From contig MFEQ01000006.1 in the NCBI GenBank assembly GCA_001777665.1, positions 278,300 to 342,299 on the forward strand: DNA of 64,000 nt, in the 5' to 3' direction. Of the stretch, positions 1,450 through 46,741 are shown piece by piece (position 1 is the first letter of the stretch; every line of letters starts with the position of its first letter). The notes below the pieces were generated by a model. That model had not been told where the DNA came from, did no database searches, and was given only the letters and a program-made list of their open reading frames with translations. A program made the translations under genes and the position numbers. The stretch comes from Candidatus Doudnabacteria bacterium RIFCSPHIGHO2_02_FULL_42_25 (lineage in GTDB: Bacteria; Patescibacteriota; Doudnabacteria; UBA920; O2-02-FULL-48-8).

Positions 1450-2136
1450 TTAAAAATTATATGCTGGTCTGGAAGTAAAAAATTTAAATTCAGTTAATGG
1501 CAGGGCTCGGACAAAGACTTTTCCGATGATATCTTTTTCCGGTAAAACGCCCCAGTCCCTAGAATCTGAAGATGCAAGCCTGTTATCGCCCATTACAAAG
1601 TATTCGCCAGCTCCAAGAGTTAGAATCTTACTCCCACCGAGTAATACTGTATCTTGCTCATAAGTCATGCTTTGGTTGGGTAGATATTTTTCATCGAGTG
1701 CAACTCCGTCGGGGTGTTCATCGTTATAAATGATTACCTTGCCATTCTGCAACTGAAGTTTTTCACCAGGTAAGACGATTATTCGCTTGATAAAAAATTG
1801 GTTTTCGTCTTTCGGGTAACGCATAACGATGACATCACCGCGTTTGGGGTCTCCAAAGTTGTAGGATAATTCATCTATAATCAAATACTCACCATCTTGG
1901 AAATTCGGGACCATGGACGATCCAGAGACGATAAAGGGCTGGAATACAAAATAACGAATCGGGATAATAATTACAAGGGCAACCAATACAATTTTCAGAA
2001 AATCCCAAATTAATAAGGCTGTGGCAGTAAAACCACCAAAGAAATTTCGATTTTTAGATGTTTTTTCTGTTTGATTGTCTGAATTTTGTTGAGTTGTCAT
2101 AAATTTATCTGGTGGATCCGGATGGATTTGAACCAT
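1450..2136 (-). CDS. lepB: signal peptidase I (S26 family)
   Basis: N-terminal TM segment, an 'SGSSMVPNF' Ser box, the 'GDNRLASSDSRDWG' box and 'IIGKVFVRALP' are all present in the translation. Confidence 0.85.
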   Translation of the reverse strand: MVQIHPDPPDKFMTTQQNSDNQTEKTSKNRNFFGGFTATALLIWDFLKIVLVALVIIIPIRYFVFQPFIVSGSSMVPNFQDGEYLIIDELSYNFGDPKRGDVIVMRYPKDENQFFIKRIIVLPGEKLQLQNGKVIIYNDEHPDGVALDEKYLPNQSMTYEQDTVLLGGSKILTLGAGEYFVMGDNRLASSDSRDWGVLPEKDIIGKVFVRALPLTEFKFFTSRPAYNF

Positions 2137-2164
2137 CGGCCTTTTGGATGTGAACCGAACGCTC

Positions 2165-2289
2165 CCCGCCTGCCACGCCTAATTAAATTTCTTGGTGGAC
2201 GATAGTGGATTCGAACCACTGACCTCGTCGATGTGAACGACGCACTCTAACCAGCTGAGCTAATCGTCCAAGATGGCATGGCGGGCAGG
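2165..2289 (-). repeat. palindromic-element arms CCTGCCCGCCATGCC / GGCGTGGCAGGCGGG flanking a complete tRNA-Val, inserted in the D-loop of the outer tRNA
   Basis: Read on the minus strand, the arms are the same 15-nt pair found in-frame in topA, uvrA and uvrC. Here the 'loop' between them is a whole tRNA gene. Confidence 0.7.
2194..2269 (-). tRNA. tRNA-Val (anticodon CAC)
   Basis: 76-nt cloverleaf GGACGAT-TA-GCTCAGCTGGTTAGAGT-G-CGTCG-TTCACAT-CGACG-AGGTC-AGTGG-TTCGAAT-CCACT-ATCGTCC-A. CCA follows in the genomic sequence. Confidence 0.85.
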
Positions 2290-2314
2290 TAACCCCTGAG
2301 CTACGGATCCAAAC

Positions 2315-2554
2315 TTAGATGCGTCCTTTTAAAAATCTTCGGCCAAAACCGGTTTTAAAATACTTTTCTCGTTTAATAGCATTCTCTTTGCTCAAACAGG
2401 CCTCGTAATATACTAATTCAAACGGGATTCTAGCCTTTGTTGCTTCGACTAAACCTTTATTATGCTTATCTACTCGTTCTTGCAAATCAACAGTCCAGCC
2501 TATATAAAGCTTTAAATCTTTAAGACTTTTTAGTACATAAGTATAGTAAAACAT
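2315..2554 (-). CDS. GIY-YIG nuclease family protein
   Basis: 79 aa. The 'YVLKS…LYIGWTVDLQERVDKHNKG' block is the GIY-YIG catalytic motif. The gene lies directly beside the IR-flanked tRNA insertion. Confidence 0.75.
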   Translation of the reverse strand: MFYYTYVLKSLKDLKLYIGWTVDLQERVDKHNKGLVEATKARIPFELVYYEACLSKENAIKREKYFKTGFGRRFLKGRI

Positions 2555-2567
2555 AACGCTCTAACCA

Positions 2568-2634
2568 GCTGCCCGCCCGCCATCGCAAGCCTGACACTTA
2601 CGCTTTATAACTTGCTCAGGCGTTGCGGGCGGGA
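2568..2634. repeat. intergenic GC-rich palindromic element, long variant, copy A
   Basis: CTGCCCGCCCGCC…GCAAGCC…GGCTTGC-like…GCGGGCGGG. It shares terminal arms with the 51-bp in-frame elements. Confidence 0.7.
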
Positions 2635-2704: not shown

Positions 2705-2766
2705 CCTGCCCGCCTTCGCAAGCCTGACACAAATGCTTAAGGCTTGCTCAGAGCGTTGCAGGCGGG
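2705..2766. repeat. intergenic GC-rich palindromic element, long variant, copy B
   Basis: CCTGCCCGCCTTCGCAAGCCTGACAC…GGCTTGCTCAGAGCGTTGCAGGCGGG. It has nested inverted repeats and the same terminal arms as the in-frame copies. Confidence 0.7.
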
Positions 2767-2808: not shown

Positions 2809-4299
2809 ATGAACTATATGAACGACTTTCCTGAACTTCAACAACAATACGCCCCCTCACACCCCAAACGCCATCGTCGTCGATGGAAATGGGTGGTTTT
2901 AATTCTGATCATTCTCGGGATAGCAGGAGGGGTCGCTTTCAAATACCTAACTCAAGCAAATCAAATTTTTACGGGCGACAAAAATATCTTTGCCCGGATC
3001 GGAAATTTGCTCCTAAGCCCGGATAAGGAATTGATTGGAGAGTCGAATGGTCAAATCAATATTCTTTTGATGGGAATCGGAGGCCCCGGACACGAGGGAG
3101 CGCTTCTCACTGACACCATGCTCGTTGCGAACATCAATATACAGACCAACGAAGTGGTGCTCACCAATATTCCTCGAGACTTTATGGTGGATCTCCCGAA
3201 ATATCGGTTACAAAAAATTAATGCAGCTTATGCGTATGCCGAGCGAGATAATCCTGGGACTGGAGGAGAAGCTGCAATCGATGAAATCGAAGCCGTAACT
3301 GGACTTGAGATCCCCTACTACGCTGTGATTGACTTCAAAGGGTTTGTGAAAGGAGTGGATGATGTGGGCGGGCTGGATATTACGATTGACCGCACCTTTA
3401 CTGATGCTTTCTATCCTGATTACAAAAATGGTTATCTCGCCCCAGTGACTTTTACTAAAGGGCCGGAACACATGAATGGCGAACGGGCCTTGATTTTTGC
3501 CCGTTCCAGAAAAGGTAATAATAATGAAGGCTCGGATTTTGCCCGCAGCGAACGACAGAAAAAAATTCTGGTCGCCTTCAAAGAAAAAGTTTTTGCTTTA
3601 AAATTAAATGACCTCAAAACATTAAATAATCTCCTCGGGGCTTTTACTGATAACTTTCGAACTAATATGGAACCTCATGAGCTAAAAAGGCTCACCGATC
3701 TGGGTAGTAAAATCCAAGAACAATCAGTCTATTCATTTTCGCTCGAACCTGATGGGGAATTAGTTTGCTCGGCTCTAATTGATTTAGCCACTGGGAAGCC
3801 ACCAGTGCCGATCGCTGTCCCGCCAACGCCTACACCTCCGCCAGCTGGCGGACCAACTCCAACCCCCAGCCCGTCTCCATCGCCAACGCCTACACCTGAA
3901 GAAGAACCAGAACTAGACAACCCATCGACGACAGCCTACGTCGTCATCCCGTGTGTGGGCAAAACTCTAGCTGACATCCATACCCATCTCAAAGATTCTA
4001 TTTATTTCGCCAAACTCAAAAAAGAATCAGCAATTGTTGAGATACAAAATTCTACAGGCAAAACTGGATTGGCTAACTCACTTTTCGGCACCCTGACCAA
4101 CCTCGGGTTTGAGATTAAATTCACTTCTTTCACGGGTAAAGTCCCGCTCGAGCAGTCAATTATCTATGACAACTCCCATGGGGGCAAGCCCAACACGCTA
4201 GAATATTTAAATTCAAATTATAAGCTAACTATCTCCGACGTTAACTACACCGGCTCTACAGCTGATTTTGTGATAATATTAGGGAAGGATGCTCTCTAA
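2809..4299 (+). CDS. LytR-CpsA-Psr (LCP) family cell-envelope transferase with Pro/Thr-rich linker and C-terminal domain
   Basis: N-terminal TM segment, then an LCP core (GQINILLMGIGG…LTDTMLVANI…IPRD…INAAYA…). A PT-rich linker contains an in-frame PPAGG palindrome. Confidence 0.8.
   Translation: MNYMNDFPELQQQYAPSHPKRHRRRWKWVVLILIILGIAGGVAFKYLTQANQIFTGDKNIFARIGNLLLSPDKELIGESNGQINILLMGIGGPGHEGALLTDTMLVANINIQTNEVVLTNIPRDFMVDLPKYRLQKINAAYAYAERDNPGTGGEAAIDEIEAVTGLEIPYYAVIDFKGFVKGVDDVGGLDITIDRTFTDAFYPDYKNGYLAPVTFTKGPEHMNGERALIFARSRKGNNNEGSDFARSERQKKILVAFKEKVFALKLNDLKTLNNLLGAFTDNFRTNMEPHELKRLTDLGSKIQEQSVYSFSLEPDGELVCSALIDLATGKPPVPIAVPPTPTPPPAGGPTPTPSPSPSPTPTPEEEPELDNPSTTAYVVIPCVGKTLADIHTHLKDSIYFAKLKKESAIVEIQNSTGKTGLANSLFGTLTNLGFEIKFTSFTGKVPLEQSIIYDNSHGGKPNTLEYLNSNYKLTISDVNYTGSTADFVIILGKDAL
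3838..3851. repeat. 14-bp perfect palindrome CCGCCAGCTGGCGG, in-frame, encoding PPAGG
   Basis: Exact palindrome containing a PvuII site, located inside the LCP linker. Confidence 0.8.
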
Positions 4300-8309: not shown

Positions 8310-9396
8310 TCGTTTTACGTCAGCGCCACGCGTATCGGTTAACGTTAGACGATACGCGCAGCGCAGCCTTATAACGCTCACCGTGATTCTTCTCGTTCTT
8401 TTAATAGTTGTCTTTCTAAGTCCTAAAACTGCCCTAGGGCCAAAAACTGATAACCAAAAACCAAACCAACTTCCAAAACCTCCAACCACTACCCTGTTTT
8501 TTGCGGGTGACATCATGCTTTCGCGCAATGTCGCAGGCAAAATTTATACAGCCAACGACGTTCATCTCCCTTACTTAAACGTCAGTGAGAAAATTTTATC
8601 CGCTGATATTGCTTTTGCGAATCTAGAATCTCCGTTTAATAGCCAAGGAGATCATTCAGTCCAGAACAGTTTGATATTCAACGCTGATCCGAAATTCGCG
8701 GATGGACTATCAAATGCTGGTTTTGATATTTTATCTACAGCCAACAACCATTCGTTTGATCAGGGTAAATCCGCAATCGAATTTACGAGGGTCACCCTCG
8801 TAAATAATAATCTCGTGTCAGTTGGCACAGGAGTAGACTGTCACAGCGGAAAAATTATAGAAAAAAATCAGATCAAATTTGGATTTTTGGCTTACTCTTA
8901 TGCCGCACACAATGATGGTGGTAAAATTCCAGATCCTCTGGTTTGCGACTGGAATGATGAACAACAAATTGTTGCTGATATTCAGGCCATGCGGCCACAG
9001 GTCGATTTTTTGATCGTTTCCGCGCATATAGGCACTGAATACAAGCGAGTTCCAGACGAAGACAATGCATTGCGAGCGCGCAAAACCATAGATGCCGGAG
9101 CGGATTTATTTATCGGCCACCATCCACACTGGATCCAAACGATTGAGCAATATCAAGGTAAATGGATTTTCTATTCTTTGGGCAATTTTGTATTCGATCA
9201 AATGTGGAGCCAAGATACAAAAGAAGGTTTGACTATTACTGTCACACTTGAAGAAAAAGCGATCAAAAAAATCGAACTTAATCCGGTAGTTATCGAAAAT
9301 TATTGTTGTCCCATATGGGCTGATGACATGGAAAGTTTGGCCATCTTAAAGAAGATTGGCTTGACAACTAGAGTTTTATTAGGTGAAAATAAGTGA
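8293..9396 (+). CDS. CapA/PgsA-family metallophosphatase-like protein (poly-gamma-glutamate capsule synthesis family)
   Basis: FFAGDIM…FANLESP…ANNHSFD…SAHIGTEY…GHHPHWIQ…GNFVFDQ motifs are present. The exact start is uncertain because a palindrome lies at the 5' end. Confidence 0.75.
   Translation: MLKFVSRFTSAPRVSVNVRRYAQRSLITLTVILLVLLIVVFLSPKTALGPKTDNQKPNQLPKPPTTTLFFAGDIMLSRNVAGKIYTANDVHLPYLNVSEKILSADIAFANLESPFNSQGDHSVQNSLIFNADPKFADGLSNAGFDILSTANNHSFDQGKSAIEFTRVTLVNNNLVSVGTGVDCHSGKIIEKNQIKFGFLAYSYAAHNDGGKIPDPLVCDWNDEQQIVADIQAMRPQVDFLIVSAHIGTEYKRVPDEDNALRARKTIDAGADLFIGHHPHWIQTIEQYQGKWIFYSLGNFVFDQMWSQDTKEGLTITVTLEEKAIKKIELNPVVIENYCCPIWADDMESLAILKKIGLTTRVLLGENK
8321..8364. repeat. palindromic element, family 3, copy 1
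   Basis: CAGCGCCACGCGTATCG-GTTAACGTTAGA-CGATACGCGCAGCGCAG. A near-identical copy lies at 15165-15210. Confidence 0.7.
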
Positions 9397-9399: not shown

Positions 9400-11709
9400 A
9401 TGGCAAAATCACTAGTCATAGTAGAGAGTCCGACTAAGGCAAAAACGATTTCCAAATTCCTCGACGGAAAGTATAAAGTCGAGGCGTCTTTTGGTCATAT
9501 CCGCGATTTGCCGACCAGTAAAATGGGAATCGACATCGAACATGATTTCGAACCTACATATGTCATTCCACCGAAAGCAAAAAAGAAAATTGCTGAACTA
9601 AAAAAATTGGCGAAAGATGCCGAAGAAATAATTCTCGCGACTGACGAAGACCGCGAAGGTGAAGCCATTGCCTGGCATTTGGTAGAGGCTTTGGGCTTAA
9701 ATAAAACTCATAAACCAGAAGCTAAAATCAAACGCATCGTTTTCCACGAAATTACGAGGTCGGCTATAGAAACCGCGATGGAACATCCTCGGGAGCTGGA
9801 TATAGATTTAGTCGACGCCCAGCAAGCACGCCGAGTACTCGACCGGTTGGTGGGTTATGAACTCTCCCCTTTCTTATGGAAGAAGGTTAAGAGAGGCTTG
9901 TCAGCCGGACGTGTCCAATCTGTCGCTGTGAGATTGGTCGTGGATCGCGAACGCGAAATCCAAAAATTTACTCCAGAAGAATATTGGAACATTATTGCGA
10001 CTTTTCATAAAGATAATAATTTCCTAGGTAAACTCAACAAAATCGACGGCAAAACTTTGGATAAACTCGGGATAAAAAACGAGACTCAAGCCAAGAAAAT
10101 TTTAGCTGATCTCGCCAACCGACCAGCCGAGGTCACAGAGGTTACGAAAAAAGAAGTCCGACGCAATCCAGCTGCTCCTTTTATTACATCTTCACTCCAG
10201 CAAGAAGCAGCTCGGAAGCTCGGTTTCAGTGCCAAACAGACCATGATGTACGCCCAGCAATTATATGAAGGTGTGGAACTTGGCGACGGCAGTGCGACAG
10301 GTTTAATTACCTATATGAGAACGGATTCAGTTAATCTTTCTGAGTTTGCGCTCGATTCAGCCCACAAAGCGATCATGGAACGATATGGTAAAGACTATTT
10401 ACTCGATACTCCTCGCAAATATGCGTCCCGATCGAAAAACGCCCAGGAAGCACATGAAGCCATCCGACCAACTGATTTACAAAGAGATCCCGAAAGTCTC
10501 AAAGACCACCTCGATCGCAACCAACATCGACTTTATGATTTGATTTGGAAACGAACAATCGCTAGCCAAATGCCAGAAGCTGTATTTGATCAAACCGCGG
10601 TTGATATCGAGATTAAAGGTGATAAAAAATACACCTTCCGTGCCAATGGCCAAGTCATCAAATTCGATGGATTCATGAAAGTTTACCTAGAAGGCACTGA
10701 TGAAGAAGAGCCTACTGAAGAAGACCTGCCCGCCATGCCTCGTGGTGGGCCAGATGACAAGGCGTGGCAGGCGGGCGGGTTGCTACCTGAACTCAAGGTT
10801 GGCGATAAACCAAAAGTCGTTAAAATTTTACCGAAACAATCTTTCACCCAACCTCTACCTCGCTACACTGATGCCACTCTGATCAAAGCTTTAGAAGAAC
10901 AAGGGATCGGCCGTCCCTCGACTTATGCGCCAACCCTGACAACAATTCAAGAACGCGATTACGTCAATAAAATTGATAAAAAATACCATCCGACTGAAAT
11001 GGGTTTTATCGTTAATGATATTTTAGTTGAACATTTCCCAAAAATTGTAGATCTCCAATTCACAGCGCTTATGGAAGATGAATTGGATGGCATAGCCACG
11101 GGTGAAAAGGCCTGGGTGCCGGTGATCAAAGAATTTTATGGCCCCTTCCATGAAAATTTGAAAACTAAAGAAAAAGAAGTCGAACGCCATGTCGAAATTT
11201 TGGATGAAAAATGTCCTCTTTCGGGTCATCCCCTACAGATTAAGTTTGGCCGGTTTGGAAAATTTGTGGCATGTACTAATTATCCAGAATGTAAATTCAC
11301 CCGTCCGATGCCAGAAGAACAAAAATTGATCGAAGAAAATAGCGGGGAAATTTGCGATGTTTGCGGTCGTCCTATGATCGTAAAGTTTGGTCGGTTTGGT
11401 GCTTTCCTCGGTTGCAGTGGTTATCCGGATTGTAAAAATATCAAAAAGATTCAAAAAGGTACTGGTGTCACTTGCCCATCCTGCGGCGAAGGCGAATTGG
11501 TAGAACGACGCAGCAAACGTGGAATTTTCTATTCTTGTTCCAAATATCCGAAATGTAAATTCCTGATGAATGGTAAACCGACTGGTGAAAAATGCCCGCA
11601 ATCGGGCGATCTATTGATGGAAACTAAAAACGGTACTCTGAAGTGCAGCAACAAAGAATGTGACTATGAACGCGAAGCTGCCCCCGCTGAAGTTGAAAAA
11701 GCAAAATAA
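9400..11709 (+). CDS. topA: DNA topoisomerase I with three C-terminal zinc ribbons
   Basis: Toprim N-terminus (LVIVESPTKAKTI), an active-site Tyr region and repeated CxxC…CxxC zinc-ribbon modules are present. Confidence 0.9.
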   Translation: MAKSLVIVESPTKAKTISKFLDGKYKVEASFGHIRDLPTSKMGIDIEHDFEPTYVIPPKAKKKIAELKKLAKDAEEIILATDEDREGEAIAWHLVEALGLNKTHKPEAKIKRIVFHEITRSAIETAMEHPRELDIDLVDAQQARRVLDRLVGYELSPFLWKKVKRGLSAGRVQSVAVRLVVDREREIQKFTPEEYWNIIATFHKDNNFLGKLNKIDGKTLDKLGIKNETQAKKILADLANRPAEVTEVTKKEVRRNPAAPFITSSLQQEAARKLGFSAKQTMMYAQQLYEGVELGDGSATGLITYMRTDSVNLSEFALDSAHKAIMERYGKDYLLDTPRKYASRSKNAQEAHEAIRPTDLQRDPESLKDHLDRNQHRLYDLIWKRTIASQMPEAVFDQTAVDIEIKGDKKYTFRANGQVIKFDGFMKVYLEGTDEEEPTEEDLPAMPRGGPDDKAWQAGGLLPELKVGDKPKVVKILPKQSFTQPLPRYTDATLIKALEEQGIGRPSTYAPTLTTIQERDYVNKIDKKYHPTEMGFIVNDILVEHFPKIVDLQFTALMEDELDGIATGEKAWVPVIKEFYGPFHENLKTKEKEVERHVEILDEKCPLSGHPLQIKFGRFGKFVACTNYPECKFTRPMPEEQKLIEENSGEICDVCGRPMIVKFGRFGAFLGCSGYPDCKNIKKIQKGTGVTCPSCGEGELVERRSKRGIFYSCSKYPKCKFLMNGKPTGEKCPQSGDLLMETKNGTLKCSNKECDYEREAAPAEVEKAK
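10725..10775 (+). repeat. 51-bp palindromic element inserted in-frame in topA
   Basis: CCTGCCCGCCATGCC-N21-GGCGTGGCAGGCGGG. It encodes LPAMPRGGPDDKAWQAGG. Confidence 0.85.
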
Positions 11710-12702: not shown

Positions 12703-13766
12703 ATATTTTTGTTAATTGCTGAAGTTATAATAGCACTTTCTACGATTTCTTCCACTTCCTTTGCATTCTGGGTCTCCATTAATTTCACTCGCAATTCTTT
12801 GGCCCCGTCGAATCCGTTGACATAGGCTTTGTAATGTTTCTTCATGGTCTCGAAACTTTTGATCCCGGCAAATTTTTGCTCAAATAGTTTCGTATGCTCG
12901 ATCATGACTTTCAAACGTTCGGACAAAGAAATTTGTGGCTTGCGACTAAACAGCCACGGGTTGCCGAAAATTCCACGGCCAATCATGATCCCATCACATC
13001 CGGTTTCTGCAACTTTCTGTTCTGCTTCAGCTAAATTTGCGACATCCCCATTGCCTAAGATTAAAGTCTCTTTAGATATCTGATCTCTGATATCTGTTAT
13101 CTGTCTCATAACTTCCCAGTGCGCAGGGACTTTGGACATTTCTTTTACAGTACGCAGGTGCACAGTCAGTACAGAAATCTCGGTTTTCAATATTGTCGGC
13201 AACCACGTATCAATTTCAATTTTGTTAAAACCAATTCTGGTTTTGACCGAAACCGGGAGCTCCCCTGCTCCTTCTTTCGTCGCATGAATAATCTCTTGTG
13301 CCAGAGCTGGTGTTTTGATTAAAGCCGAGCAGGCTTTTTGATTGAGAATTTTTTTGACTGGACAACCCATGTTTATATCCACGCCATCAAACCCTAATTC
13401 TTTGATTAATTTAGCAGCTTTATAAAAATTTTCAGGATTGGATCCAAAAATCTGGGCGACTATCGGATGTTCGTTTTCTCCATACCAAAAATCAACCAGT
13501 AATCGACTCAATCCTTCGGAGTTGAGCCCATCTACAGATACGAATTCGGTCCAGAACACATCTGGCTTGCCGTATTTAGCAATCAATTCCCGAAACGCGG
13601 CATCGGTCACATCTGCCAGCGGAGCCAAAACCATTATCGGCCTGCCCGCAACGCCAGCAAGCTGGCTTGCGTGGCGGGCGGGCTTTTTCAATTTTTCCCA
13701 AAATCCTAAATTCATAAATGCTTCCCATCCCAGCGAAAGCTGGGATCCACTACTTAAATTACACAA
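12699..13766 (-). CDS. dus: tRNA-dihydrouridine synthase (TIM-barrel FMN enzyme)
   Basis: LAPLADVTD…VDINMGCPVKK…SVKTRIG motifs are present. The likely true start is the internal Met near 13717. An in-frame palindrome lies in the N-terminus. Confidence 0.8.
   Translation of the reverse strand: MCNLSSGSQLSLGWEAFMNLGFWEKLKKPARHASQLAGVAGRPIMVLAPLADVTDAAFRELIAKYGKPDVFWTEFVSVDGLNSEGLSRLLVDFWYGENEHPIVAQIFGSNPENFYKAAKLIKELGFDGVDINMGCPVKKILNQKACSALIKTPALAQEIIHATKEGAGELPVSVKTRIGFNKIEIDTWLPTILKTEISVLTVHLRTVKEMSKVPAHWEVMRQITDIRDQISKETLILGNGDVANLAEAEQKVAETGCDGIMIGRGIFGNPWLFSRKPQISLSERLKVMIEHTKLFEQKFAGIKSFETMKKHYKAYVNGFDGAKELRVKLMETQNAKEVEEIVESAIITSAINKNI
13640..13684 (-). repeat. ~45-bp palindromic element variant in-frame in the dus N-terminus
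   Basis: GCCTGCCCGCAACGCC-AGCAAGCTGGCTTGC-GTGGCGGGCGGGC. It encodes KKPARHASQLAGVAGRP immediately ahead of the conserved LAPLADVTD. Confidence 0.65.
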
Positions 13767-13859: not shown

Positions 13860-15173
13860 TCAATCATTTTTCATGAAGATCCTGTTTTCGGTAGTCCAAT
13901 AAGAAATCGCTTTGGTGAATGGTAAAATAGATAGAAAATATCTCAAATCCGCGGCTTTGCGGATGAGCCAACCCGAAAATCCGGACATAATCACACTCGG
14001 TGTATAAAAAATAGCAAATTTTCCAGTCACAGGAATAATAAATCGTAACGCTACTGGATGATAACTAAGCAGCGGCTTGTCTTTGATCATGCGGTAAATA
14101 TTTTTGGCGACATATTTGCCTTGATTGATAGCTTCTTGTGCAGTTTGTGGCACTGGCTTTTTTGTAACTGGATCCACTATTCCGGTATTGTCCCCGGCGA
14201 GAAATACGCGTGGGTATTGCGATAAATTCAAAGCAGTCGCCACGATGGTCCGATCTTTTTTATCTCGTTCGAGTTCTCCGCCAGCTGGCAGATCTAGCGG
14301 CAACCGGATGGACCTGACTCCACCCGTCCAAATCAGCAAATCACAATCCACCCGTTCTTTCATATTTAGAATCACGTGATCCTTCCCAGTGTCAGTAATC
14401 AGTGATGAGAATCTAGTTTCAATTCCCATAGTAGTAAGTCGACTGCCGATTATTGCCGAAATTTTCTCCGACAGTCCGGATAAATAACTCGTCCCCCCTT
14501 CGACCATCACAACCTTGTAATTATTTAAATCTTTTTGATGGTGTGCACATTCATGCTTGAGCAGATTGTGTACTTCCCCGGCAAATTCAGTTCCAGCAAA
14601 ACCAGCACCACCGATAATAATGCAGCCACTGTCCTTTTTCGCAACTAAATCTTCGATACGATTCCGAATCATAATCGCATCTTCTAGACTTTTCAGTGTA
14701 AATCCGTACTTATCCAAATTCGGAATGTCATAATAATCGGGAACACTTCCCATAGCGATCACCAAATAATCAAAAGCTAAGATGCGCGAGTCAGTTATTA
14801 CTTTGCCGTTTATTAAATCAATCCGATCAACATAACCTTTGAAAACTTTTACTCTTGTTCGTTTAAAAATGTCATCGAAAGAAATCGCCACGGTATGCTT
14901 AACTTTTTTTGCTTCGACTAATCGGTGTTCTGTCGTGGCTGCTTCATAGAGAGCGGAATTAAAAGTTTGATAATCCTTTCGGTCAACTAAAATAATTTCG
15001 TATTCTAAATCATCGTGGAGGTAATTGTTCAAATCCAAAGCCGCTCGGACTCCGGCGAATCCGCCACCAAGAATGATAATATGTTTTTTCTCTTCTGGAA
15101 TTTTTGATTTCATGAATAAAAACAGCCCCTTTATTATACCATAAGCTGCGTTAATAGTTTTTCGGCAGCGCAA
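13860..15173 (-). CDS. type II NADH dehydrogenase-like FAD/NAD(P)-binding oxidoreductase
   Basis: Two GxGxxG dinucleotide folds are present (IIILGGGFAGV and IIIGGAGFAGTEFAGE). The C-terminal extension contains a near-copy of the PPAGG palindrome. Confidence 0.75.
   Translation of the reverse strand: MRCRKTINAAYGIIKGLFLFMKSKIPEEKKHIIILGGGFAGVRAALDLNNYLHDDLEYEIILVDRKDYQTFNSALYEAATTEHRLVEAKKVKHTVAISFDDIFKRTRVKVFKGYVDRIDLINGKVITDSRILAFDYLVIAMGSVPDYYDIPNLDKYGFTLKSLEDAIMIRNRIEDLVAKKDSGCIIIGGAGFAGTEFAGEVHNLLKHECAHHQKDLNNYKVVMVEGGTSYLSGLSEKISAIIGSRLTTMGIETRFSSLITDTGKDHVILNMKERVDCDLLIWTGGVRSIRLPLDLPAGGELERDKKDRTIVATALNLSQYPRVFLAGDNTGIVDPVTKKPVPQTAQEAINQGKYVAKNIYRMIKDKPLLSYHPVALRFIIPVTGKFAIFYTPSVIMSGFSGWLIRKAADLRYFLSILPFTKAISYWTTENRIFMKND
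14278..14290. repeat. near-palindrome CCGCCAGCTGGCA in-frame, encoding LPAGG
   Basis: 13/14 match to CCGCCAGCTGGCGG. Confidence 0.5.
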
Positions 15174-15210
15174 CGCGTATCGGTTAACGTTAGACGATAC
15201 GCGCGGCGCC
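15165..15210. repeat. palindromic element, family 3, copy 2 (intergenic)
   Basis: CAGCGCAACGCGTATCGGTTAACGTTAGACGATACGCGCGGCGC. Confidence 0.7.
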
Positions 15211-15221
15211 GACGAATAACT

Positions 15222-15938
15222 CTAGACGATGTCTTTTTTAGTTATGAATTTATGCTTGCCTAGGGGTAAATCACCCAACTTTACTTTTCCAACCCGGATT
15301 CGCTTGAGATTGCGAATCGTATAACCAAAAGCCGCAAACATTCTACGGACTTGGCGATTCCAGCCTTCGTGAATTGTGATATAGATAGTTGTACCGTTTG
15401 CTCGAACTTTGGCTGGTGCTGTTTTCTTGCCATCCAATTCCATGCCTTCCCGAAGTTTCGTGATCCGTCCTTCTGATAACTCTTTATTCAAAACCACCTC
15501 GTACTCTTTTTCGTGTTCTTTCGACGGATGTGCCAAGTCCTGAGTTAATTCTCCGTCATTAGTAAACAATAATAATCCTTCGGTATTGAAATCCAGGCGC
15601 CCGATGGGCCAGACCACTGATCGAAGATCTGCAGGTAATAAATCAAAAACAGTTTTGCGTTTTCGGGGATCATTCCGCGTAGTCAAATATCGCTTCGGTT
15701 TGTTCATCATGAGATAGATTAAACTTTTAACAGTTAACTTTTTACCATTAACCTCTACACGGTCTTTGGCAATGTCGGCTTTGGTTCCCAGCTCACGAAC
15801 TACTTGGCCATTCACTTTGACTTTGCCAGCCAAAATCAACTCCTCGGCATGACGCCTGGAAGCAATTCCTGCTTGGGAGATTATCTTTTGTAAACGCTCT
15901 TGCATGAGGTTTAATGCTATAATTAATTTATTAACCAT
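15222..15938 (-). CDS. pseudouridine synthase, RsuA/RluB family (S4 domain plus catalytic domain)
   Basis: An S4 domain at the N-terminus and the catalytic-Asp motif GRLDFNTEGLLLFTNDG are present. Confidence 0.85.
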   Translation of the reverse strand: MVNKLIIALNLMQERLQKIISQAGIASRRHAEELILAGKVKVNGQVVRELGTKADIAKDRVEVNGKKLTVKSLIYLMMNKPKRYLTTRNDPRKRKTVFDLLPADLRSVVWPIGRLDFNTEGLLLFTNDGELTQDLAHPSKEHEKEYEVVLNKELSEGRITKLREGMELDGKKTAPAKVRANGTTIYITIHEGWNRQVRRMFAAFGYTIRNLKRIRVGKVKLGDLPLGKHKFITKKDIV

Positions 15939-16759: not shown

Positions 16760-17080
16760 GTGTTTAAAATATATATTGATCCCGAAGTTCAAAAATTTAT
16801 TTTAAATCTCGAACCAGTTACCAAGGCAAAAATTGCGAGAAACCTCGATTTACTGGAAAATTTCGGATATAAATTAGAGATGCCGCATTCTAAAAAAATA
16901 TCTGACACTCTATTTGAGTTACGTATTCGAGGTCAACAAGAAATCAGAATTTTCTATTGTTTTCACAACGAAGTTATTAAATTGTTACATGGGTTTACAA
17001 AAAAATCTCAAAAAATCCCGCTTAAAGAACTACGCGCCGCAGAAAATAAATATAAAGCCTTGACACAATATAACTTATAA
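16760..17080 (+). CDS. type II toxin, HigB/RelE-like (Gp49/DUF891-like)
   Basis: 106 aa. The block …SDTLFELRIRGQQEIRIFYCFHNEVIKLLHGFTKKSQKIP… fits the family. The gene lies immediately upstream of an HTH antitoxin. Confidence 0.6.
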   Translation: MFKIYIDPEVQKFILNLEPVTKAKIARNLDLLENFGYKLEMPHSKKISDTLFELRIRGQQEIRIFYCFHNEVIKLLHGFTKKSQKIPLKELRAAENKYKALTQYNL

Positions 17081-21468: not shown

Positions 21469-21934
21469 CTACGAAATTACGAAATTAATACGAAAATACG
21501 AACTAGTTAATATTAAGAATTCTTTTGTATTGTAATCCTTTTGCAGTAAAGTTTGCTAGTATTCCAAGTTTTAAATCTAAAGCCTTTAGATACGCTATAA
21601 CTTGTTCAATATTCTTATAAGAAAAATTATTATCTTTCTTGATTTCGAGTGCAACTTTATTCTCGACAAGAAAATCTAGGCGATAAGAGCCTATTGCCTT
21701 ATCTTTATACATCAGAGGGATTCTAGCCTGCTCAGTAAATGAAAGATTGCTCTTTTTCAACTCAATTGCAACAGCTCTTTGATAGTATTTCTCGTGATGT
21801 TTATTGCCTAGCTGCTTAAATACTTCAAACAAAACGCCGACTATTTGATAACTTAATTCTGGATAAACTAGATTTTTTTTACTACCACTGGTTTAGGCAT
21901 GTTCGTACTTTCGTAATTTTTTCGTAGTTCGTAG
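21469..21934. repeat. TACGAA×4 … TTCGTA×4 palindromic element whose loop contains the GxxExxY gene
   Basis: Left arm CTACGAAATTACGAAATTAATACGAAAATACGAA (21469-21502). Right arm TTCGTACTTTCGTAATTTTTTCGTAGTTCGTAG (21902-21934). Confidence 0.6.
21503..21832 (-). CDS. GxxExxY-family protein (PD-(D/E)xK nuclease-like)
   Basis: YQRAVAIEL…IGSYRLDFLVENKVALEIK matches the GxxExxY protein family signature. Confidence 0.65.
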   Translation of the reverse strand: MFEVFKQLGNKHHEKYYQRAVAIELKKSNLSFTEQARIPLMYKDKAIGSYRLDFLVENKVALEIKKDNNFSYKNIEQVIAYLKALDLKLGILANFTAKGLQYKRILNIN

Positions 21935-26850: not shown

Positions 26851-27087
26851 ATGATCACACGGACCAAGGTTGCCGTAGGTGTTACCACCACGGTGGCCGG
26901 TATAGTGCTACTCAGCGTCATCTATGCACATCGGTACTCCCTCGACCCACGGCTGGTGATCGTGCCCCGCGAAGATCCACCCGAAGATGACTGGGGTCGA
27001 CCATTCCCCGAATTCCCTCCAGAGCAACACAAACTAGGCTCACAGCTCCAAGCAGATCCGAGCGATCGTTGGTCGACAGTCCACTAG
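26851..27087 (+). CDS. small GC-rich hypothetical protein (foreign-looking)
   Basis: Strong SD GAGGAGGG before the ATG. One TM segment. Followed by a terminator. Confidence 0.5.
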   Translation: MITRTKVAVGVTTTVAGIVLLSVIYAHRYSLDPRLVIVPREDPPEDDWGRPFPEFPPEQHKLGSQLQADPSDRWSTVH

Positions 27088-27099
27088 TCTCGCCGACTA

Positions 27100-27142
27100 G
27101 GCTTCCAGCTTCCCGCTTCCCCCACCGGAAGCTTTTTTTTAT
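27100..27142 (+). terminator. rho-independent terminator
   Basis: GCTTCC-CCCACC-GGAAGC followed by T8. Confidence 0.7.
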
Positions 27143-27178
27143 TTCACTAATTTACCAGTAATACTTATCCCTTGTCCC

Positions 27179-27754
27179 TTACTTCTTGAGTTCGGCTATG
27201 ACTATATACCTCTTCCACGCAGTACCAATTGGATAAGACGTTTGAAGTGTTAATAAATACTTAGATTCATCTTGCTGCAACACTGACAGGTCTTTTGCAT
27301 CCACGACTTTTTTCTCTTTGACTTCATAAGTATATCCGCGGCCAGCATGATCACTGATGATAATTTTCGCGCCGATGTCGATATTTGGAAGAGTCGCAAA
27401 CACAGTTTTATAGTCGCCTTTTGACCACAGGTAATCCGAGGAGTGACCGAAGATATAAACATTCCCAGATTCACCAGGAACTGCCGTGTCAGGAAAATGC
27501 ACGACACCTTTTCTTAAATCTTCTTGAAACTTTTTCTCATCGTTGTCTGTGGCATAGATAATCGGAGCTTTCACAGCCAGGGAATCGATAACCAGTAAAT
27601 TCGGTTCAACTAAATTTTCATCCGTTGGCTCATTCGGTGTATTTTCAATTTTACCAAAAAAAACATAATCTATGTTTTTATAAACATAGTCCCAGTTTAG
27701 GACTACGATAATAGCCACGAGTAAAAAAAGTACTTTAAAAATATATTTAATCAT
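27179..27754 (-). CDS. sortase-family transpeptidase-like protein in which the catalytic Cys appears to be replaced by Ser
   Basis: N-terminal TM segment. A His motif (NVYIFGHSSDY) is present. 'LLTLQTSYP' aligns to the sortase 'LTLITC' motif, and a downstream Arg is present. The gene is adjacent to an LPXTG substrate. Confidence 0.6.
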   Translation of the reverse strand: MIKYIFKVLFLLVAIIVVLNWDYVYKNIDYVFFGKIENTPNEPTDENLVEPNLLVIDSLAVKAPIIYATDNDEKKFQEDLRKGVVHFPDTAVPGESGNVYIFGHSSDYLWSKGDYKTVFATLPNIDIGAKIIISDHAGRGYTYEVKEKKVVDAKDLSVLQQDESKYLLTLQTSYPIGTAWKRYIVIAELKK

Positions 27755-27804
27755 GAGTTTATTTTAGCATTATAAAAAGCCCCCGCACATGGGGGCTTTA
27801 AAAT

Positions 27805-29607
27805 TTATACTTTTACTACTTTTAGTCTTTTTCTTCCGAGCAATACTACTGGTACTAGTAATAGTCCTAGTAAGTCTGCGTAGATATTCGGATTAACTCC
27901 GGTTCGAGGAAGTTCAGTCGTAGCTCCCAAAATCTGGGGGGTCGGACTTGGACTTGCAGCTGGACTTGGAGTTGGTCCGCCAGCTGGCGGAGGTGTCGGA
28001 CTTGGAGGAACTGGGCCTGGCCCTGAAGCTCCACTACTCGAACCACCGCCCCCGCCGCCTCCACCGCCCCCGCCGCCACCTGGATTACCACCTACGTCAT
28101 TCAAGGTAAAGTGGGCGTTGAGAGTAATATCACCATTGATAGTAACCTGACAAGGTGTAGTTGGTCCTAGACAAGTATTGGCCGCAGGAGCCCCACTAGT
28201 CACTGACCAGCTGTTATCGAAATTCGAGCCTTCATCAGCAGTAGCGGTTAAGCTAACTACTGTTCCTTCATCATAAACTTGAGCACAATTATTTGCTTCG
28301 CCATTGCTGTCGCAAAGAATCAATTCATCATCGTCAGTAACTACACCTTCCCCATCGCCACTCGTGGTTATAGTCAAAGTGAATTGAAGCGGGCCCCCAC
28401 TGCCTTCATCTTCTTCGAAAACTACTGAAACATTTTTGTTAGAATCCATAGTTAAAGTACAGACTGTGGTGGTTTCCGCGGCACAGTCGCCGCCCCAGCT
28501 GACAAAATGCCAACCAGCATCAGCAGTTGCGGTCAAAGTCACGACTGTATTTTCATTATAAACATCATCGCAGTCAGTGGCTTCACAATCAATACTACCA
28601 ACATCAGAACCTGCAGAACCATCCCCTGTGACGTCAGTCACGGTCAGCGTGTACTGAATAGGTTCATGGACAATTTCGTTACAAACGCCATCATGGTCAG
28701 AATCTTCGTAGCCTTCAGGAATTACAACTTGAATTCCTTCAAGATTAGTACAAAGATCTGGATGTGGTTCTTCTTCTGTAAAAGTGTTTACTATGGTACA
28801 GCTAGCTGAACCATTGGAGCTGACTTCAACACTATCACAATTATTACTAGTCTGACTCCAATTATTATTTGGAACTGAAATTTCAGATACAGTATAAGTA
28901 CCAGGAGCCAATGTCAAAACTTCACTACCAATACCTCCATCAGTTTCGATAGTGAAATTATCGTCAGTACCCGTGGTGTAGGAAAAACCAAAAGTCCCAT
29001 TAGCGTTATGGGTTTCTTTGATCACTCTCAAAGTTCCGTTATAAAAACAAGAGCCGTCATCTTCTGTAGCTTCCTCATCAAAATTCAGAGCAGAACCATC
29101 AGTACAACCGAGCACTGGATCTGGCTCGCCATCGCCATCACATGCTCCTTCATTCCAAATATCTTCGTTGACATCATTCCAATTTTTTCCAGGATAGGAA
29201 CCAACACTATTACCGTCTTGGTAGTGGAATGGCGGAATAATGTCATTGATATGGCCATCGTGCCCAGTGATAGCACTGTTTACAGAAACATCTCCTGAAG
29301 ACTTATAAGCATCAGATGCATCCCAGTGACAAAGTGCAATTTTCTTCATCACTGCCCCGCCAAATGGATCATGATCAGCAGTAGCCATTAACGGGGACAT
29401 AGCTAAAACTAGCATGGCGATGACCATACCTGCATGCAAAAATTTGATGTTGCTTTGGCTGTTAACTTTTGATTTTCGAGCGACTCGGACTCGCCCTTTA
29501 CTCTGGGACCGAACTAGTTTTTTCTTGGAAGTACTGCGCATAGAGTTTTGACCTTTCTTTTCGCCAACTGGCGAATTAATTTTAACTGTAGACTGTAGCC
29601 TAAGCAA
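27805..29607 (-). CDS. large surface protein with C-terminal LPXTG cell-wall sorting signal
   Basis: N-terminal signal/TM segment. The C-terminus is …LPRTG, a hydrophobic segment, then RKRLKVVKV. Gly-rich and PT-rich linkers are present. Confidence 0.8.
   Translation of the reverse strand: MLRLQSTVKINSPVGEKKGQNSMRSTSKKKLVRSQSKGRVRVARKSKVNSQSNIKFLHAGMVIAMLVLAMSPLMATADHDPFGGAVMKKIALCHWDASDAYKSSGDVSVNSAITGHDGHINDIIPPFHYQDGNSVGSYPGKNWNDVNEDIWNEGACDGDGEPDPVLGCTDGSALNFDEEATEDDGSCFYNGTLRVIKETHNANGTFGFSYTTGTDDNFTIETDGGIGSEVLTLAPGTYTVSEISVPNNNWSQTSNNCDSVEVSSNGSASCTIVNTFTEEEPHPDLCTNLEGIQVVIPEGYEDSDHDGVCNEIVHEPIQYTLTVTDVTGDGSAGSDVGSIDCEATDCDDVYNENTVVTLTATADAGWHFVSWGGDCAAETTTVCTLTMDSNKNVSVVFEEDEGSGGPLQFTLTITTSGDGEGVVTDDDELILCDSNGEANNCAQVYDEGTVVSLTATADEGSNFDNSWSVTSGAPAANTCLGPTTPCQVTINGDITLNAHFTLNDVGGNPGGGGGGGGGGGGGSSSGASGPGPVPPSPTPPPAGGPTPSPAASPSPTPQILGATTELPRTGVNPNIYADLLGLLLVPVVLLGRKRLKVVKV
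27977..27990. repeat. CCGCCAGCTGGCGG palindrome in-frame (PPAGG) within the PT linker
   Basis: An exact copy. About 30 nt of flanking sequence is identical to the LCP gene linker at 3838-3851. Confidence 0.8.
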
Positions 29608-29668
29608 TGTAAATTGTCAAGACTGACAAAAAAACCGCTCTTTTCGAGCGGTTTTTGTGGATTTCGAG

Positions 29669-31276: not shown

Positions 31277-31776
31277 TTTTAAGAAACAAAAACCAAGGAT
31301 TTATCCAGCACCACTTTTCTTTTGGAAAAGTGGTGACTGGATTTACACTGATAGAACTACTCGTAGTCATTGCGGTTATCGGGATTTTAGCTGCGGTAGT
31401 TTTGGTTGCTATGCAACAATCGAGAATTAAAGCGCGAGATGCCGTACGTAAAGATCAAATTCAAACAATCAGAAGAGCTTTGGAGATTCATCGGTTTGAA
31501 ACCGGAGCCTATCCAAATGGCGGAGCAGTAGGGGGTCCGAACAATGAAACTGATATTCAAAATCTCGCGGGATTCCTTGTTCCGAACTATCTCAAATCCA
31601 TCCCAAATGATCCGAAAAATTCACCACAAAATTACAGGTATGTCTGGCGGCAGGCGGGAGCCGCGATGGGATTGTTTGTTCCATTTAGCAATGACGGTGG
31701 GACGAGCTGTAAAATTGTCACCCCAGGTGCTCAAGCTAATTGGTTTGGCAACGGCACCCCAATTTGTAATTTTTAA
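31267..31776 (+). CDS. type IV pilin / pseudopilin (prepilin-type N-terminal methylation domain)
   Basis: …G|[19 protein letters not shown]… is the prepilin peptidase cleavage and methylation motif. Confidence 0.8.
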
Positions 31777-31779
31777 CTT

Positions 31780-32322: not shown

Positions 32323-32367
32323 AAAATTTCACTTTAAAAATAGCCCGGTCACCCGAGCTGTTTTTAA

Positions 32368-35850: not shown

Positions 35851-35859
35851 AGAATTTAA

Positions 35860-36303: not shown

Positions 36304-36386
36304 AAAATTAATTAATTATTTCATCCCTCACTCCTCCCCGCCAAAAATTGACGGAGAGAGAGTGAAAGATCAAACTAGTTTAATCT

Positions 36387-37835: not shown

Positions 37836-37859
37836 TTTAGGTTAGGTTAATAAGATTTA

Positions 37860-40479: not shown

Positions 40480-43380
40480 TTAGACTCGAACCGGTTTCAG
40501 GGCTTTGGCCAAGTATTGGCCGGTGTAACTTTTTTTGACTTTCGCGACGTCTTCTGGGGTGCCAACTGCCACGACCTGTCCGCCCTTATTCCCACCTTCA
40601 GGACCGAGATCAATAACCCAGTCCGCCGATTTGATGACATCGAGGTTGTGTTCAATGACTAGAACTGTGTTCCCTTTCTCGACTAAACGATTGAGTACGC
40701 CGAGTAAGCGCTTGACGTCATCAAAGTGCAACCCAGTCGTTGGTTCATCTAAAATGTATAGTGTGCGGCCAGTGGAAGCTCTGGATAATTCAGAAGAGAG
40801 TTTGATACGTTGCGCTTCTCCGCCAGAGAGTGTGGTAGCTTGCTGACCCAAATGCATGTAACCGAGACCGACTAAAGATAGCGTTTCTAATTTACGAGCA
40901 ATTAATGGCACGTTGCGGAAAAAAACATGTGCTTCATCCACTGTCATTTCCAGGACATCAGAAATATTTTTACCTTTGTAGTGGATGTCGAGAGCTTCTT
41001 TATTATAGCGTTTACCTTTACACTCTTCACAAGCGACATAGACATCTGGCAAGAAATGCATTTCGATTTTGATTACCCCATCGCCGCCACAGACTTCACA
41101 ACGGCCACCTTTAACATTGAAACTAAATCGGCCGGCTTTGTAACCACGCATGCGAGCTTCCGGTACAGATGCAAACAGATCGCGAATATAGGTGAAGACG
41201 CCGGTATAAGTCGCTGGGTTGGAGCGTGGTGTCCGGCCAATCGGTGACTGGTCAATATTAATAACTTTGTCGATGTTGTCGATGCCGAGGATTTTTTTAT
41301 GTTCACCTGGTGATTCTTTGGCATTGTAGAAATAAGCAGAAAGGGATTTGGCTAAAATCTCATTGAGCAATGTTGATTTGCCACTGCCCGAAACTCCAGT
41401 CAGACAAACAAATTTACCCAAAGGGATTTCGACATCAATGTTTTTAAGGTTGTGTTCAGTCGCACCTACAACTTTGATAGTTTTACCATTCCCTTTCTTG
41501 CGTGCCATAGGTACCGAGACTGATTCAGCACCAGACATGTACTTGCCAGTGAGAGAATTTTTATCTTTGGCTACTGTATTAGGTGTGCCTTCAGCAACTA
41601 ACTGCCCGCCGTGTTTGCCAGCACCAGGCCCGATATCTACGACCCAGTCCGAGGCCCAGATGGTTTCTTCGTCGTGTTCAACCACGATGACAGTGTTTCC
41701 GAGATCGCGCAAATTTTTCAAAGTTCGAAGTAATCGATCGTTATCGCGTTGGTGAAGCCCGATCGATGGTTCGTCTAAGATATAGAGCACGCCGGTCAAT
41801 CCTGAACCGATTTGGGTGGCCAGACGAATGCGCTGGGCTTCTCCGCCAGAGAGTGTATCCGCAGATCGATCGAGAGTCAGATAATTCAAACCGACATCTT
41901 GTAAAAATTTCAAACGAGAAACAATTTCTTTGAAGATCTGATGGGCGATTTTCATGTCTTTCTCGGACATTTTCTTCGGCAGGGATTCTGTAAACTCAAT
42001 CGCTTCGTCAATTGAGAAGTTGGAAACATCGACAATCGATTTCGCATCGATAGTGACTGCCAAAAATTCTGGTTTCAATCTCTTCCCTTTACAGGTCGGA
42101 CATTTCTGCACCCGCATATACTGTTCAATCTCACCACGCATATAGTCTGATTCGGTTTCTTTGTATTTGCGCATTAAATTATGGACCACACCCTCAAACG
42201 GACCGAAGTGGCCATAACCAGATTCATCCTGAAATGAAATTTTCGTGTCTCCAGTACCGTACAAAACTGCATCCAGTGCTTTCTTCGGTAAATCTCGAAC
42301 TGGAACGTGGATAGAAAACCCGTAAACTTTCGAAACTGCTTCGAGAACTCGGGAATACCAAGACATTCTGGAGGTAGTTTTGCTCCATGGTCGGATCGCA
42401 CCTTCGGCGAGAGTCAATCTTTTATTTGGGATGACTAATTCAGCCTCGATTTCCAGTCTAGTGCCAAGTCCGGTACAATCCGGACATGCGCCGTGTGGAG
42501 AGTTAAAAGAGAAGTTCCTTGGGTTCAATTCAGGTAGATTAGTATGGCCCTCCGGACAGGCAAAATTAGATGAGAGCAGTATCTCTCCCGCCTGCCACGC
42601 CTCTATCTCTTGCTTTGACCGAGGCATGGCGGGCAGGTCTTTCTCATCTTTGGCAATTATCACGGAATCGTTCCCCAAATCCAGTGCTGTTTCGAGAGAA
42701 TCAGCAATTCTGGCTCGATCTCCTGAATCCAAAGATATCCGATCCACCACAATATCTATAGTGTGTTTTTTCTTTTTGTCGACATTGAGCTGCAACGCCT
42801 CGGACAAATCCATAATCGTGCCGTCAAATCGGATTCGCTGGTAGCCGGATTTTTTGGCTTCTTCCAGTAAATGTTTGTGCTCGCCTTTTTGGTCACGAAC
42901 CAGTGGCGCCATGATCACGATCTTGGTGGATTCTGGCCAACTGACGATCTGGTCTACCATTTGAGTGACACTTTGTCCGGTAATTTTTTTACCACAAACC
43001 GGACAGTGCGGAGTGCCGACACGAGCGTAGAGTAATCTCAAATAATCATAAATTTCGGTAACAGTTCCGACAGTCGAGCGCGGATTGTGTGATGCAGATT
43101 TCTGGTCGATAGAAATCGCTGGTGAGAGTCCTTCTATCTTGTCGACATCAGGTTTATCCATAAGTCCTAAAAATTGTCTGGCGTAAGCCGAGAGGGATTC
43201 AACATAGCGTCGCTGACCTTCCGCGTATATGGTATCGAATGCCAAAGAGGATTTGCCGCTACCTGAAAGACCCGTGATGACCACGAGTTTGTTTCTGGGG
43301 ATATCGACATTGATGTTTTTTAAGTTATGGACCCGAGCTCCCCTTATTACTATCTTATCTGACATTGCGTATTCTCCCAT
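40480..43380 (-). CDS. uvrA: excinuclease ABC subunit A
   Basis: Two ABC ATPase modules with zinc fingers are present. The likely true start is the internal Met at 43365. Confidence 0.95.
42587..42637 (-). repeat. 51-bp palindromic element inserted in-frame in uvrA
   Basis: On the coding strand: CCTGCCCGCCATGCC-N21-GGCGTGGCAGGCGGG. It encodes [18 protein letters not shown]. Confidence 0.85.
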
Positions 43381-46641: not shown

Positions 46642-46741
46642 TTGTTATCTGTTATCTGGTAACTGTTGACTGATTTCTCCTTTTCTGGCAAAATAGCTAA
46701 GTCCCGCCTGCGCTAAAGCTTCGGCGGGCAAGCATAAATAT

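Follow-up and report, generated by a model that had tools for sequence, protein, structure and literature searches.

Introduction

In Rickettsia, short palindromes known as Rickettsia palindromic elements (RPEs) are found in frame within housekeeping genes that have nothing to do with one another, as well as in non-coding DNA and RNA genes; the added peptide is believed to be surface-exposed, and no transposase is known (PMC10969869). In yeast mitochondria, the GC42 cluster has conserved stems, varying at well below the background rate, and variable loops, and its mobilisation mechanism is unknown (PMC4478555). Repetitive extragenic palindromic sequences (REPs) lie outside genes and have a GTAG or CGTC head (PMC3733652). 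Here we describe a family of small palindromes in a 64-kb stretch, called the window, of a metagenome-assembled genome (MAG) of Candidatus Doudnabacteria in the candidate phyla radiation (CPR). Its core element is 51 nt long and lies in frame in topA, uvrA and uvrC, and related copies lie in tRNA genes.

This element resembles RPEs in being inserted in frame into unrelated protein genes and absent from the orthologues. However, RPEs measure ~100-150 bp, belong to Rickettsia and have one conserved peptide and frame per family, whereas the Doudnabacteria element measures 30-62 nt, has 73% G+C and a CPR host, is read in at least four frames, keeps only its arms conserved and can hold a tRNA as cargo. 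It is set apart from RPEs by length, frames and host. With GC42, its closest analogue, and with hairpin elements from the mitochondria of fungi and sponges it shares multiple GC-rich hairpins of ~40-50 nt in an AT-richer genome, with conserved stems and variable loops. GC clusters are mitochondrial, and GC42 makes an AG target duplication and is mostly intergenic, whereas the present element makes no duplication and occupies essential open reading frames (ORFs) and tRNA genes of a bacterial chromosome. REPs, their REPIN arrangements and the associated RAYT (REP-associated tyrosine transposase) genes are similar in that their imperfect palindromes are short and GC-rich, keep their stems conserved while the loops vary, and duplicate no target sequence; movement as folded single strands is plausible for them too. 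In contrast, the present element has CCYGCC termini, is found inside ORFs, and has no RAYT gene among ~50 window ORFs scanned. The best-supported reading is that it is analogous to RPEs and mitochondrial GC clusters and probably a member of neither, nor of the REP/RAYT systems or the DDE-type MITEs (miniature transposable elements with inverted repeats).

CPR genomes are very small and are thought to be poor in repetitive DNA; here essential genes are being rewritten by a family of tiny palindromes, which gives topoisomerase I and two proteins of excision repair extra loops and interrupts a tRNA gene. With a probability of roughly 0.7, we take it to be a non-autonomous family of small GC-rich palindromes that is mobile at the DNA level within a narrow Candidatus Doudnabacteria group and is translated in tolerant loops. 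On the best-supported reading, its recent activity took place independently in a small number of Doudnabacteria lineages. Protein remodelling of the RPE kind would then not be peculiar to Rickettsia or organelles, and such inserts would account for part of the indels in conserved proteins that pass as 'CPR-specific'.

A 51-nt hairpin in topA, uvrA and uvrC

Three full copies, termed A-type, lie in protein genes:

10725..10775, plus strand: A-type element, 51 nt, in frame in topA (9400-11709), encoding LPAMPRGGPDDKAWQAG
42587..42637, minus strand: A-type element, 51 nt, in frame in uvrA (40480-43380, minus strand), 17 residues
45597..45647, plus strand: A-type element, 51 nt, in frame in uvrC (44821-46641), encoding LPAMPRVKQSDKAWQAG, residues 260-276

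A first-pass annotation of the window had reported these as exact copies of one sequence, and they are so: CCTGCCCGCCATGCC-N21-GGCGTGGCAGGCGGG occurs without a mismatch at all three sites. As it had also claimed, the encoded 17-residue inserts take the form LPAMPR-x7-AWQAG (one peptide being DLPAMPRVKQSDKAWQAGG). All three copies are in sense orientation and in a common codon phase, each interrupting a GAN codon after GA. When the 15-nt arm is sought with up to 3 mismatches, the window has 13 matches against 0.60 expected, and none of 100 shuffles reaches 13, so that the matches form a repeat family rather than a product of chance. The G+C content is 73% in the element and 43% in the window.

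The 9-nt termini, CCYGCCYGC...GCRGGCRGG, are common to subfamilies of 30, 42, 51 and 62 nt. The two arms of the 51-nt element form a 15-bp stem, which the annotation had described as containing wobble pairs. The sense strand does have two T.G pairs, along with one C.A mismatch that the annotation did not mention, and on the antisense strand there are one wobble and two mismatches. Either strand yields a stable hairpin, with RNA folding energies of -32 to -34 kcal/mol for sense and -27 to -29 kcal/mol for antisense, and the folding z-score is -3.8 to -6.4. When the left arm is set against the complement of the right one, three positions differ, and these fixed differences are the same in every copy, so the unit must have been copied whole.

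Conservation stops at the arms. Among window copies, pairwise differences number 0/90 in the arms and 30/63 in the 21-nt loops (Fisher p = 1e-14). Over 14 copies the loops give merely a loose consensus, TCG-nnn-AAWGCTT-nnn-ACAA, and the cargo-bearing copies have perfect arms without keeping the loop motifs. The best explanation is that the conserved functional unit consists of the two 15-nt arms, and that the sequence between them is a passenger, usually of 18-23 nt and sometimes a whole tRNA gene.

The wobble pairs had been taken as a hint of selection on the RNA form, which our data do not favour. The wobbles are invariant and therefore inherited from the element; the proposed covariation analysis yielded no covariation in the arms, which do not vary; and the A-type copies divide into 7 sense and 3 antisense relative to transcription (binomial p = 0.34). 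No replication-strand bias was seen either, as four window copies split 2:2 where GC skew is monotonic.

Recent and lineage-specific inserts

Alignment of the host proteins to orthologues, suggested by the annotation as a check on its RPE-like, frame-preserving insertion, places the 17-residue segments at variable loops or turns and in this lineage only. The TopA insert is absent in 20/20 relatives, including Doudnabacteria up to 85% identical, all of which read EE(E)-GLLPEL across the site; the site itself is a length-variable acidic linker. For UvrA, alignment with the Geobacillus protein (PDB 2r6f) leaves a gap of exactly 17 residues at the insert, and the insert is missing even from a 93%-identical UvrA (P0006). 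The contig that encodes P0006, L217, also has uvrC, and both of its sites are empty at the nucleotide level, with zero duplicated and zero missing bases. The UvrC insert is absent in 32/32 best homologues, two of which have unrelated short insertions at the identical point, marking it as a tolerant turn. Judged from these comparisons, the 17-residue segments are recent lineage-specific in-frame insertions of one repeated palindromic element.

In an AlphaFold2 model of UvrC (mean predicted local distance difference test score, pLDDT, 87.7), the sole segment with pLDDT <50 is residues 262-271. This segment falls inside the insert (260-276), between predicted strands 251-258 and 278-287, where the insert would extend a beta-hairpin turn. 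Location and structure together suggest that the surviving in-gene copies are those that keep the frame, are free of stops and sit in tolerant surface loops, and that they are probably translated into loop extensions of 14-17 residues.

The inserts are not an assembly artefact, since NCBI contig MFFA01000003.1 (GCA_001780055.1) encodes the identical insert-bearing TopA, which is recorded in 41 blocks of the assembly collection; the sources of the 24 contigs that we read are NCBI, ENA and JGI assemblies.

Side by side with L217, the window also differs in its neighbouring genes. Between uvrA and hrcA-grpE, ~13 kb (27000-40400) are filled by sortase, SpaA-like pilin, VWA and DUF5671 genes, whereas hrcA-grpE comes within ~2 kb after uvrA in L217; the ~13 kb are a lineage-specific insertion or rearrangement.

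Further copies, hosts and reading frames

Other members and one possible member of the family lie elsewhere in the window:

2572..2633, plus strand: B-type element, 62 nt, termini CCCGCCCGC..GCGGGCGGG, in a truncated tRNA 5' fragment
2705..2766, plus strand: B-type element, 62 nt, intergenic, upstream of a LytR_cpsA_psr gene (2809-4299)
13641..13682, minus strand: B-like variant, 42 nt, 14 codons, in the dus N-terminus, KLKK-PARHASQLAGVAGR-PIM
46703..46732, plus strand: mini-copy, 30 nt, CCCGCCTGCGCTAAAGCTTCGGCGGGCAAG, intergenic between uvrC and secG
49587-49610: possible 24-nt mini-palindrome in a terminator loop

Together with a tRNA-bearing copy described below, the window has eight copies, half of them (4/8) inside ORFs. 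The annotation had counted seven, each of which is present; it missed the 30-nt mini-copy, which is near-identical to one in locus L014, and the possible 24-nt mini-palindrome. It had listed two longer intergenic variants, and both turned out to be 62 nt. The one at 2705-2766 was placed correctly, but the other covers 2572-2633 rather than 2568-2634 and is inside a tRNA fragment. It enters the D-loop (TAGCT^CAGC) of a truncated minus-strand tRNA 5' fragment (2634-2645 + 2555-2571), to which it is antisense, and the same site is occupied by the 30-nt mini-copy in L014. The dus variant had been called in frame at 13640-13684; with the coordinates corrected to 13641-13682, it is in frame solely with a dus start at 13715. 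This start is backed by the conserved N-terminus MNRGFWDKLKKPIM in L026, whose Dus N-terminus is without the window insert. The NCBI gene start lies downstream of the element, an instance of how such inserts cause gene-start miscalls.

The family extends beyond the window, as had been predicted, with 11 exact-arm matches in other metagenome contigs. When 1.3 Mb of sequence surrounding topA, from 80 other CPR genomes, was scanned with a relaxed pattern, one copy was found, in L026. Viral contigs gave 0 matches in a both-arm scan, and a 15-mer scan of them gave chance matches alone, in GC-rich phages. The copies outside the window measure 48, 51, 52 and 53 nt. Their hosts include TypA-like GTPase, Pth and Dus genes, where they are in frame, and membrane or unknown genes as well as intergenic spacers.

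The constancy of frame that the annotation had noted applies to the three A-type copies in topA, uvrA and uvrC, and not elsewhere. In L011, L014, L026 and the window dus variant, the element is read as PARHAS..GVAGG, and in L007 and L005 it is antisense in ORFs, in two antisense frames. Over the window and the metagenome contigs, at least four frames in both orientations are used. Every in-ORF copy has a length divisible by three, and none contains a stop codon.

Comparison between genomes shows that the insertions are recent and differ from genome to genome. In dus, two sites are occupied in two genomes, KLKK^PIM in the window and KYGK^PDV in L026, which makes these independent insertions. 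The Pth proteins of the window and L014 are 68% identical; only that of L014 has a copy, and the arms are identical in the two genomes.

GC-rich mini-palindromes with CCTGCC termini were also seen at the apex of longer terminator-like hairpins (window 49576-49627; L004 1493-1545; L026 12453-12510). These may be the smallest members of the family or its source.

Nested tRNA genes

The tRNA-bearing copy is made up as follows:

2165..2289, minus strand: A-type arms enclosing an intact tRNA-Val(CAC) (tRNA 2193-2269), 125-nt cargo copy
2275-2289 (left) and 2165-2179 (right), read on the minus strand: arms of the 125-nt cargo copy
2290..2310, minus strand: outer tRNA-Val(CAC), 5' part, 21 nt, GGATCCGTAGCTCAGGGGTTA, found by ARAGORN after deletion of the insert
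2110..2164, minus strand: outer tRNA-Val(CAC), 3' part, 55 nt, with a C.A mismatch in the anticodon stem

An arm pair flanking a tRNA had been noted here. A tRNA-Val(CAC) is indeed enclosed by the pair and sits at the hairpin's apex, but this understates the arrangement, because arms and tRNA are together inserted at GGTTA^GAGC in the D-loop of a second tRNA-Val(CAC) (2290-2310 + 2110-2164).

The syntenic lepB / tRNA-Val / LytR-family locus of other Doudnabacteria has tRNA-Val(CAC) nested two or three deep. In L014 (790-1060), the outer tRNA-Val is split at the identical D-loop position by a 125-nt hairpin-armed cassette with a tRNA-Val, and has a 30-nt mini-copy in its anticodon loop besides. 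In L023 (3680-3780), a 5' tRNA fragment gives way to an element-like arm at this same position. Three nested tRNA-Val genes are found in L022 (1540-1960, minus strand) and one nested pair in L024 (2860-3110); in these two loci the outer tRNA is split in the anticodon loop, and the cassettes of ~126 nt have different inverted repeats. The outer tRNAs are damaged: that of L022 is without 2 nt of the anticodon, that of L024 has lost the T-arm, and that of L023 has no 3' half. They are thus pseudogenes, with the inner tRNA as the working copy, which explains why a tRNA-Val gene holds cargo-bearing copies alone. Pseudogenes of this kind are hidden from annotation tools by the inserts. We found no description of nested bacterial tRNA genes, and nothing relevant on palindromic or in-frame repeats in CPR, in the literature that we searched; the tRNA introns reported in a recent survey of Patescibacteria all belong to group I or group II.

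A free-standing GIY-YIG nuclease ORF of 79 aa (2315..2554, minus strand; Pfam PF01541, E = 2.7e-14), which gene calling also predicts, lies between the truncated tRNA fragment and the outer tRNA-Val of the window. It was considered as a general driver of the nesting and rejected, as it is confined to the window locus, being absent from L014, L016, L022, L023 and L024; it was not found at this locus in seven related genomes. With SegB-type homing cassettes of phage T4 and tRNA-targeting integrative elements, the nested loci share a tRNA gene as target and incoming DNA that restores tRNA function, and the window locus has the GIY-YIG ORF. At most nested loci, however, the vicinity is free of nuclease genes. 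What remains after integrase action is a complete tRNA and, behind it, a displaced 3' fragment, whereas here the complete tRNA is inside the split one and is flanked by inverted repeats.

A second nested pair was noticed in the window (49283-49562), where tRNA-Leu(CAG) at 49370-49456 lies within an outer split tRNA-Leu(CAG) that starts at ~49283 on the 5' side and ends at ~49560 on the 3' side. The inner tRNA is flanked by the inverted repeat CCGTACTAAATTTT / AAATTTTAGTACGG (49348-49361, 49479-49492). The boundaries of this insert are ambiguous, since many deletions restore a tRNA-Leu in ARAGORN.

A bolder reading, which we hold to be possible and somewhat doubtful, is that hairpin-armed cassettes of ~125 nt are self-compensating, inserting precisely into the D-loop or anticodon loop of tRNA-Val or tRNA-Leu genes and bringing at their apex a replacement tRNA with the same anticodon. 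Successive invasions would then build nested tRNA genes, and the 30-62-nt hairpins without cargo in topA, uvrA, uvrC and other places would represent their empty derivatives. Filler DNA would be captured at the apex of the palindrome, a role to which the uvrA copy points. Its loop (window 42602-42622) holds AAAGCAAGAGATAG, a 13/14 match to the empty uvrA site of L217 (~nt 722-735 of the gene). It extends across the insertion point, and it is nearer to the L217 target than the window's own joined flanks are. This case fits a palindrome whose centre was broken and then repaired with filler DNA. The loop as a regular guide for, or copy of, the target was rejected; over 14 copies, matches to own targets were compared with matches to other targets (permutation p = 0.89), and the uvrA case stands alone. 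In a more radical form of the cassette reading, insertion would occur at the RNA level by ligation into cleaved loops and be copied back to DNA. The tRNA-carrying form is the part that could prove new in kind. If it is truly a mobile cassette, the element offers a new way round a problem that introns solve by splicing, bringing a spare of the gene that it destroys, and self-compensating gene-targeting elements would make a previously undescribed class.

Can the element be removed at the RNA level instead? An intron-like element or processing signal would be cut from mRNAs and tRNA precursors, leaving the proteins unaltered, and the stem around tRNA-Val would be a processing stem. The state of the outer tRNAs argues against RNA-level excision, as pseudogenes that are decaying or truncated in L022, L024 and L023 are not rescued by it. 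Elements occur in tRNA loops, as archaeal introns also do, their ends are precise without duplication, four of four perfect window copies are sense-oriented, and the sense hairpin is the more stable one, all of which count in favour of such removal. Yet antisense copies exist (L007a, L005, the L010 rpsF-ssb spacer and the 62-nt copy in the tRNA fragment), and the in-ORF copies are confined to insertion-tolerant loops, in frame and stop-free, none of which a spliced element needs. No Rfam family except tRNA matches the window, and so no Rfam intron family does; 51 nt are too short for a ribozyme core, and we know of no bacterial enzyme that excises such a hairpin and religates the flanks. We consider RNA-level removal very unlikely.

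Precise ends without target-site duplication

Deleting exactly 2165-2289 restores a 76-nt tRNA-Val(CAC) in ARAGORN. Thus the ends of the insert are the arm tips, and the target has neither been duplicated nor lost a base. Deletion of the two inserts of L014 likewise restores a tRNA, and the empty topA, uvrA and uvrC sites have no duplicated bases. Copies therefore enter new sites as DNA, precisely, without target-site duplication or loss of target bases. Such insertion of a hairpin with 15-nt arms points to a structure-specific recombination activity.

These ends bear on an ordinary DDE-type MITE derived from an insertion sequence of the same genome, which would account for terminal inverted repeats, small size and multiple copies. 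The only transposase of the window is of the IS1595 type (49860-50654) and is a candidate parent; it is ruled out as such because the 25-nt inverted repeats of its own (49797-49821 / 50639-50663) bear no relation to the arms. Given also that no site with a known empty state has a target-site duplication, and that an arm pair enclosing an ORF is absent from the window and the other sequences examined, a MITE of this kind is as unlikely as RNA-level removal. Coxiella QMITEs are ruled out by the Doudnabacteria host and by their size of 150-400 bp.

The IS1595 element (49797-50663) adjoins the tRNA-Leu locus, and G+C is raised to 0.50-0.52, from ~0.43, in the stretch beyond it (50000-54000), whose ORFs are without a clear Pfam match. 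This stretch may be an acquired island.

Mobile palindrome or genomic signal

The identity of the arms between genomes whose Pth is just 68% identical could also come from selection, if the arms were a genomic signal, such as a DNA-uptake sequence or a site bound by a host protein, that recombination following natural transformation had spread. A signal would explain both the arm conservation across diverged genomes and the presence in genome-maintenance genes. In Neisseria, DNA-uptake sequences form inverted pairs and are over-represented in repair genes. The window has dprA, and three of its four ORF hosts are the DNA-metabolism genes topA, uvrA and uvrC (post hoc p ~0.01 by gene length). 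Copies outside the window, however, reside in typA, pth, dus and membrane or unknown genes. The three fixed arm-to-arm differences in every copy mean that the unit was copied whole and not arm by arm, and the copies are 51-nt insertions rather than motifs arisen by point mutation. Their density is low and patchy, with 8 copies in the 64-kb window and 0 in an extra 10 kb of the same contig. We rate a selected signal as very unlikely too.

A mobile DNA palindrome thus seems the most probable explanation, with several points weighing against it. No mobilising gene was found: Pfam scans of ~50 window ORFs gave no Y1/RAYT, IS200 or IS110-type protein. The exact-arm pattern has 0 matches in 185,579 species-representative genomes, among which the host range is poorly sampled, and no presence/absence polymorphism within the species was seen. 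Arm invariance in the metagenome copies is partly by construction, as the scan demanded exact arms, and the divisibility of in-ORF lengths by three is a weak argument when the basic unit is already 51 nt. Translation of the inserts is read from location and structure. The loops are very different in such recent insertions, which ordinary copying does not explain. Finally, 7/18 insertion points fall within a hairpin loop whose stem has 4 bp or more, compared with 22% of random positions, a difference that at p = 0.08 is not significant. Six of these seven sit 0-1 nt from the 3' stem; the hairpin-loop targets include the tRNA D-loop and stems of 8-9 bp in L004 and L007, and the target in the L010 rpsF-ssb spacer reads ATCCCCGC-GA^AA-GCGGGGAT. 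A preference for pre-existing hairpin loops is suggestive only.

For the mobile palindrome, we propose a tentative course of events. The element may move as a folded single strand or a cruciform, handled by a trans-acting structure-specific enzyme of a duplication-free kind (HUH/Y1-type or similar), possibly with some preference for the single-stranded loops of existing hairpins. Its centre may be repeatedly broken and repaired with filler DNA, which would explain both the variable loops and the cargo at the apex. Where the element destroys a tRNA-Val gene, the cell would be viable solely if the copy carries a working tRNA-Val.

Other features of the window

A Gp49-like ORF (HigB-type toxin; 16760-17080, plus strand) adjoins tRNA-Lys, and a small ORF for a PD-(D/E)XK nuclease (PDDEXK_3; 21503-21832, minus strand) adjoins dnaJ. 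A second, unrelated palindromic repeat family is present at 8311-8376 and 15149-15228, where an exact 32-nt core, ACGCGTATCGGTTAACGTTAGACGATACGCGC, occurs twice. Its first copy lies in the called N-terminus of a PGA_cap gene, right after the dprA stop, and the second spans the junction between a pseudouridine synthase gene and a Pyr_redox_2 gene.

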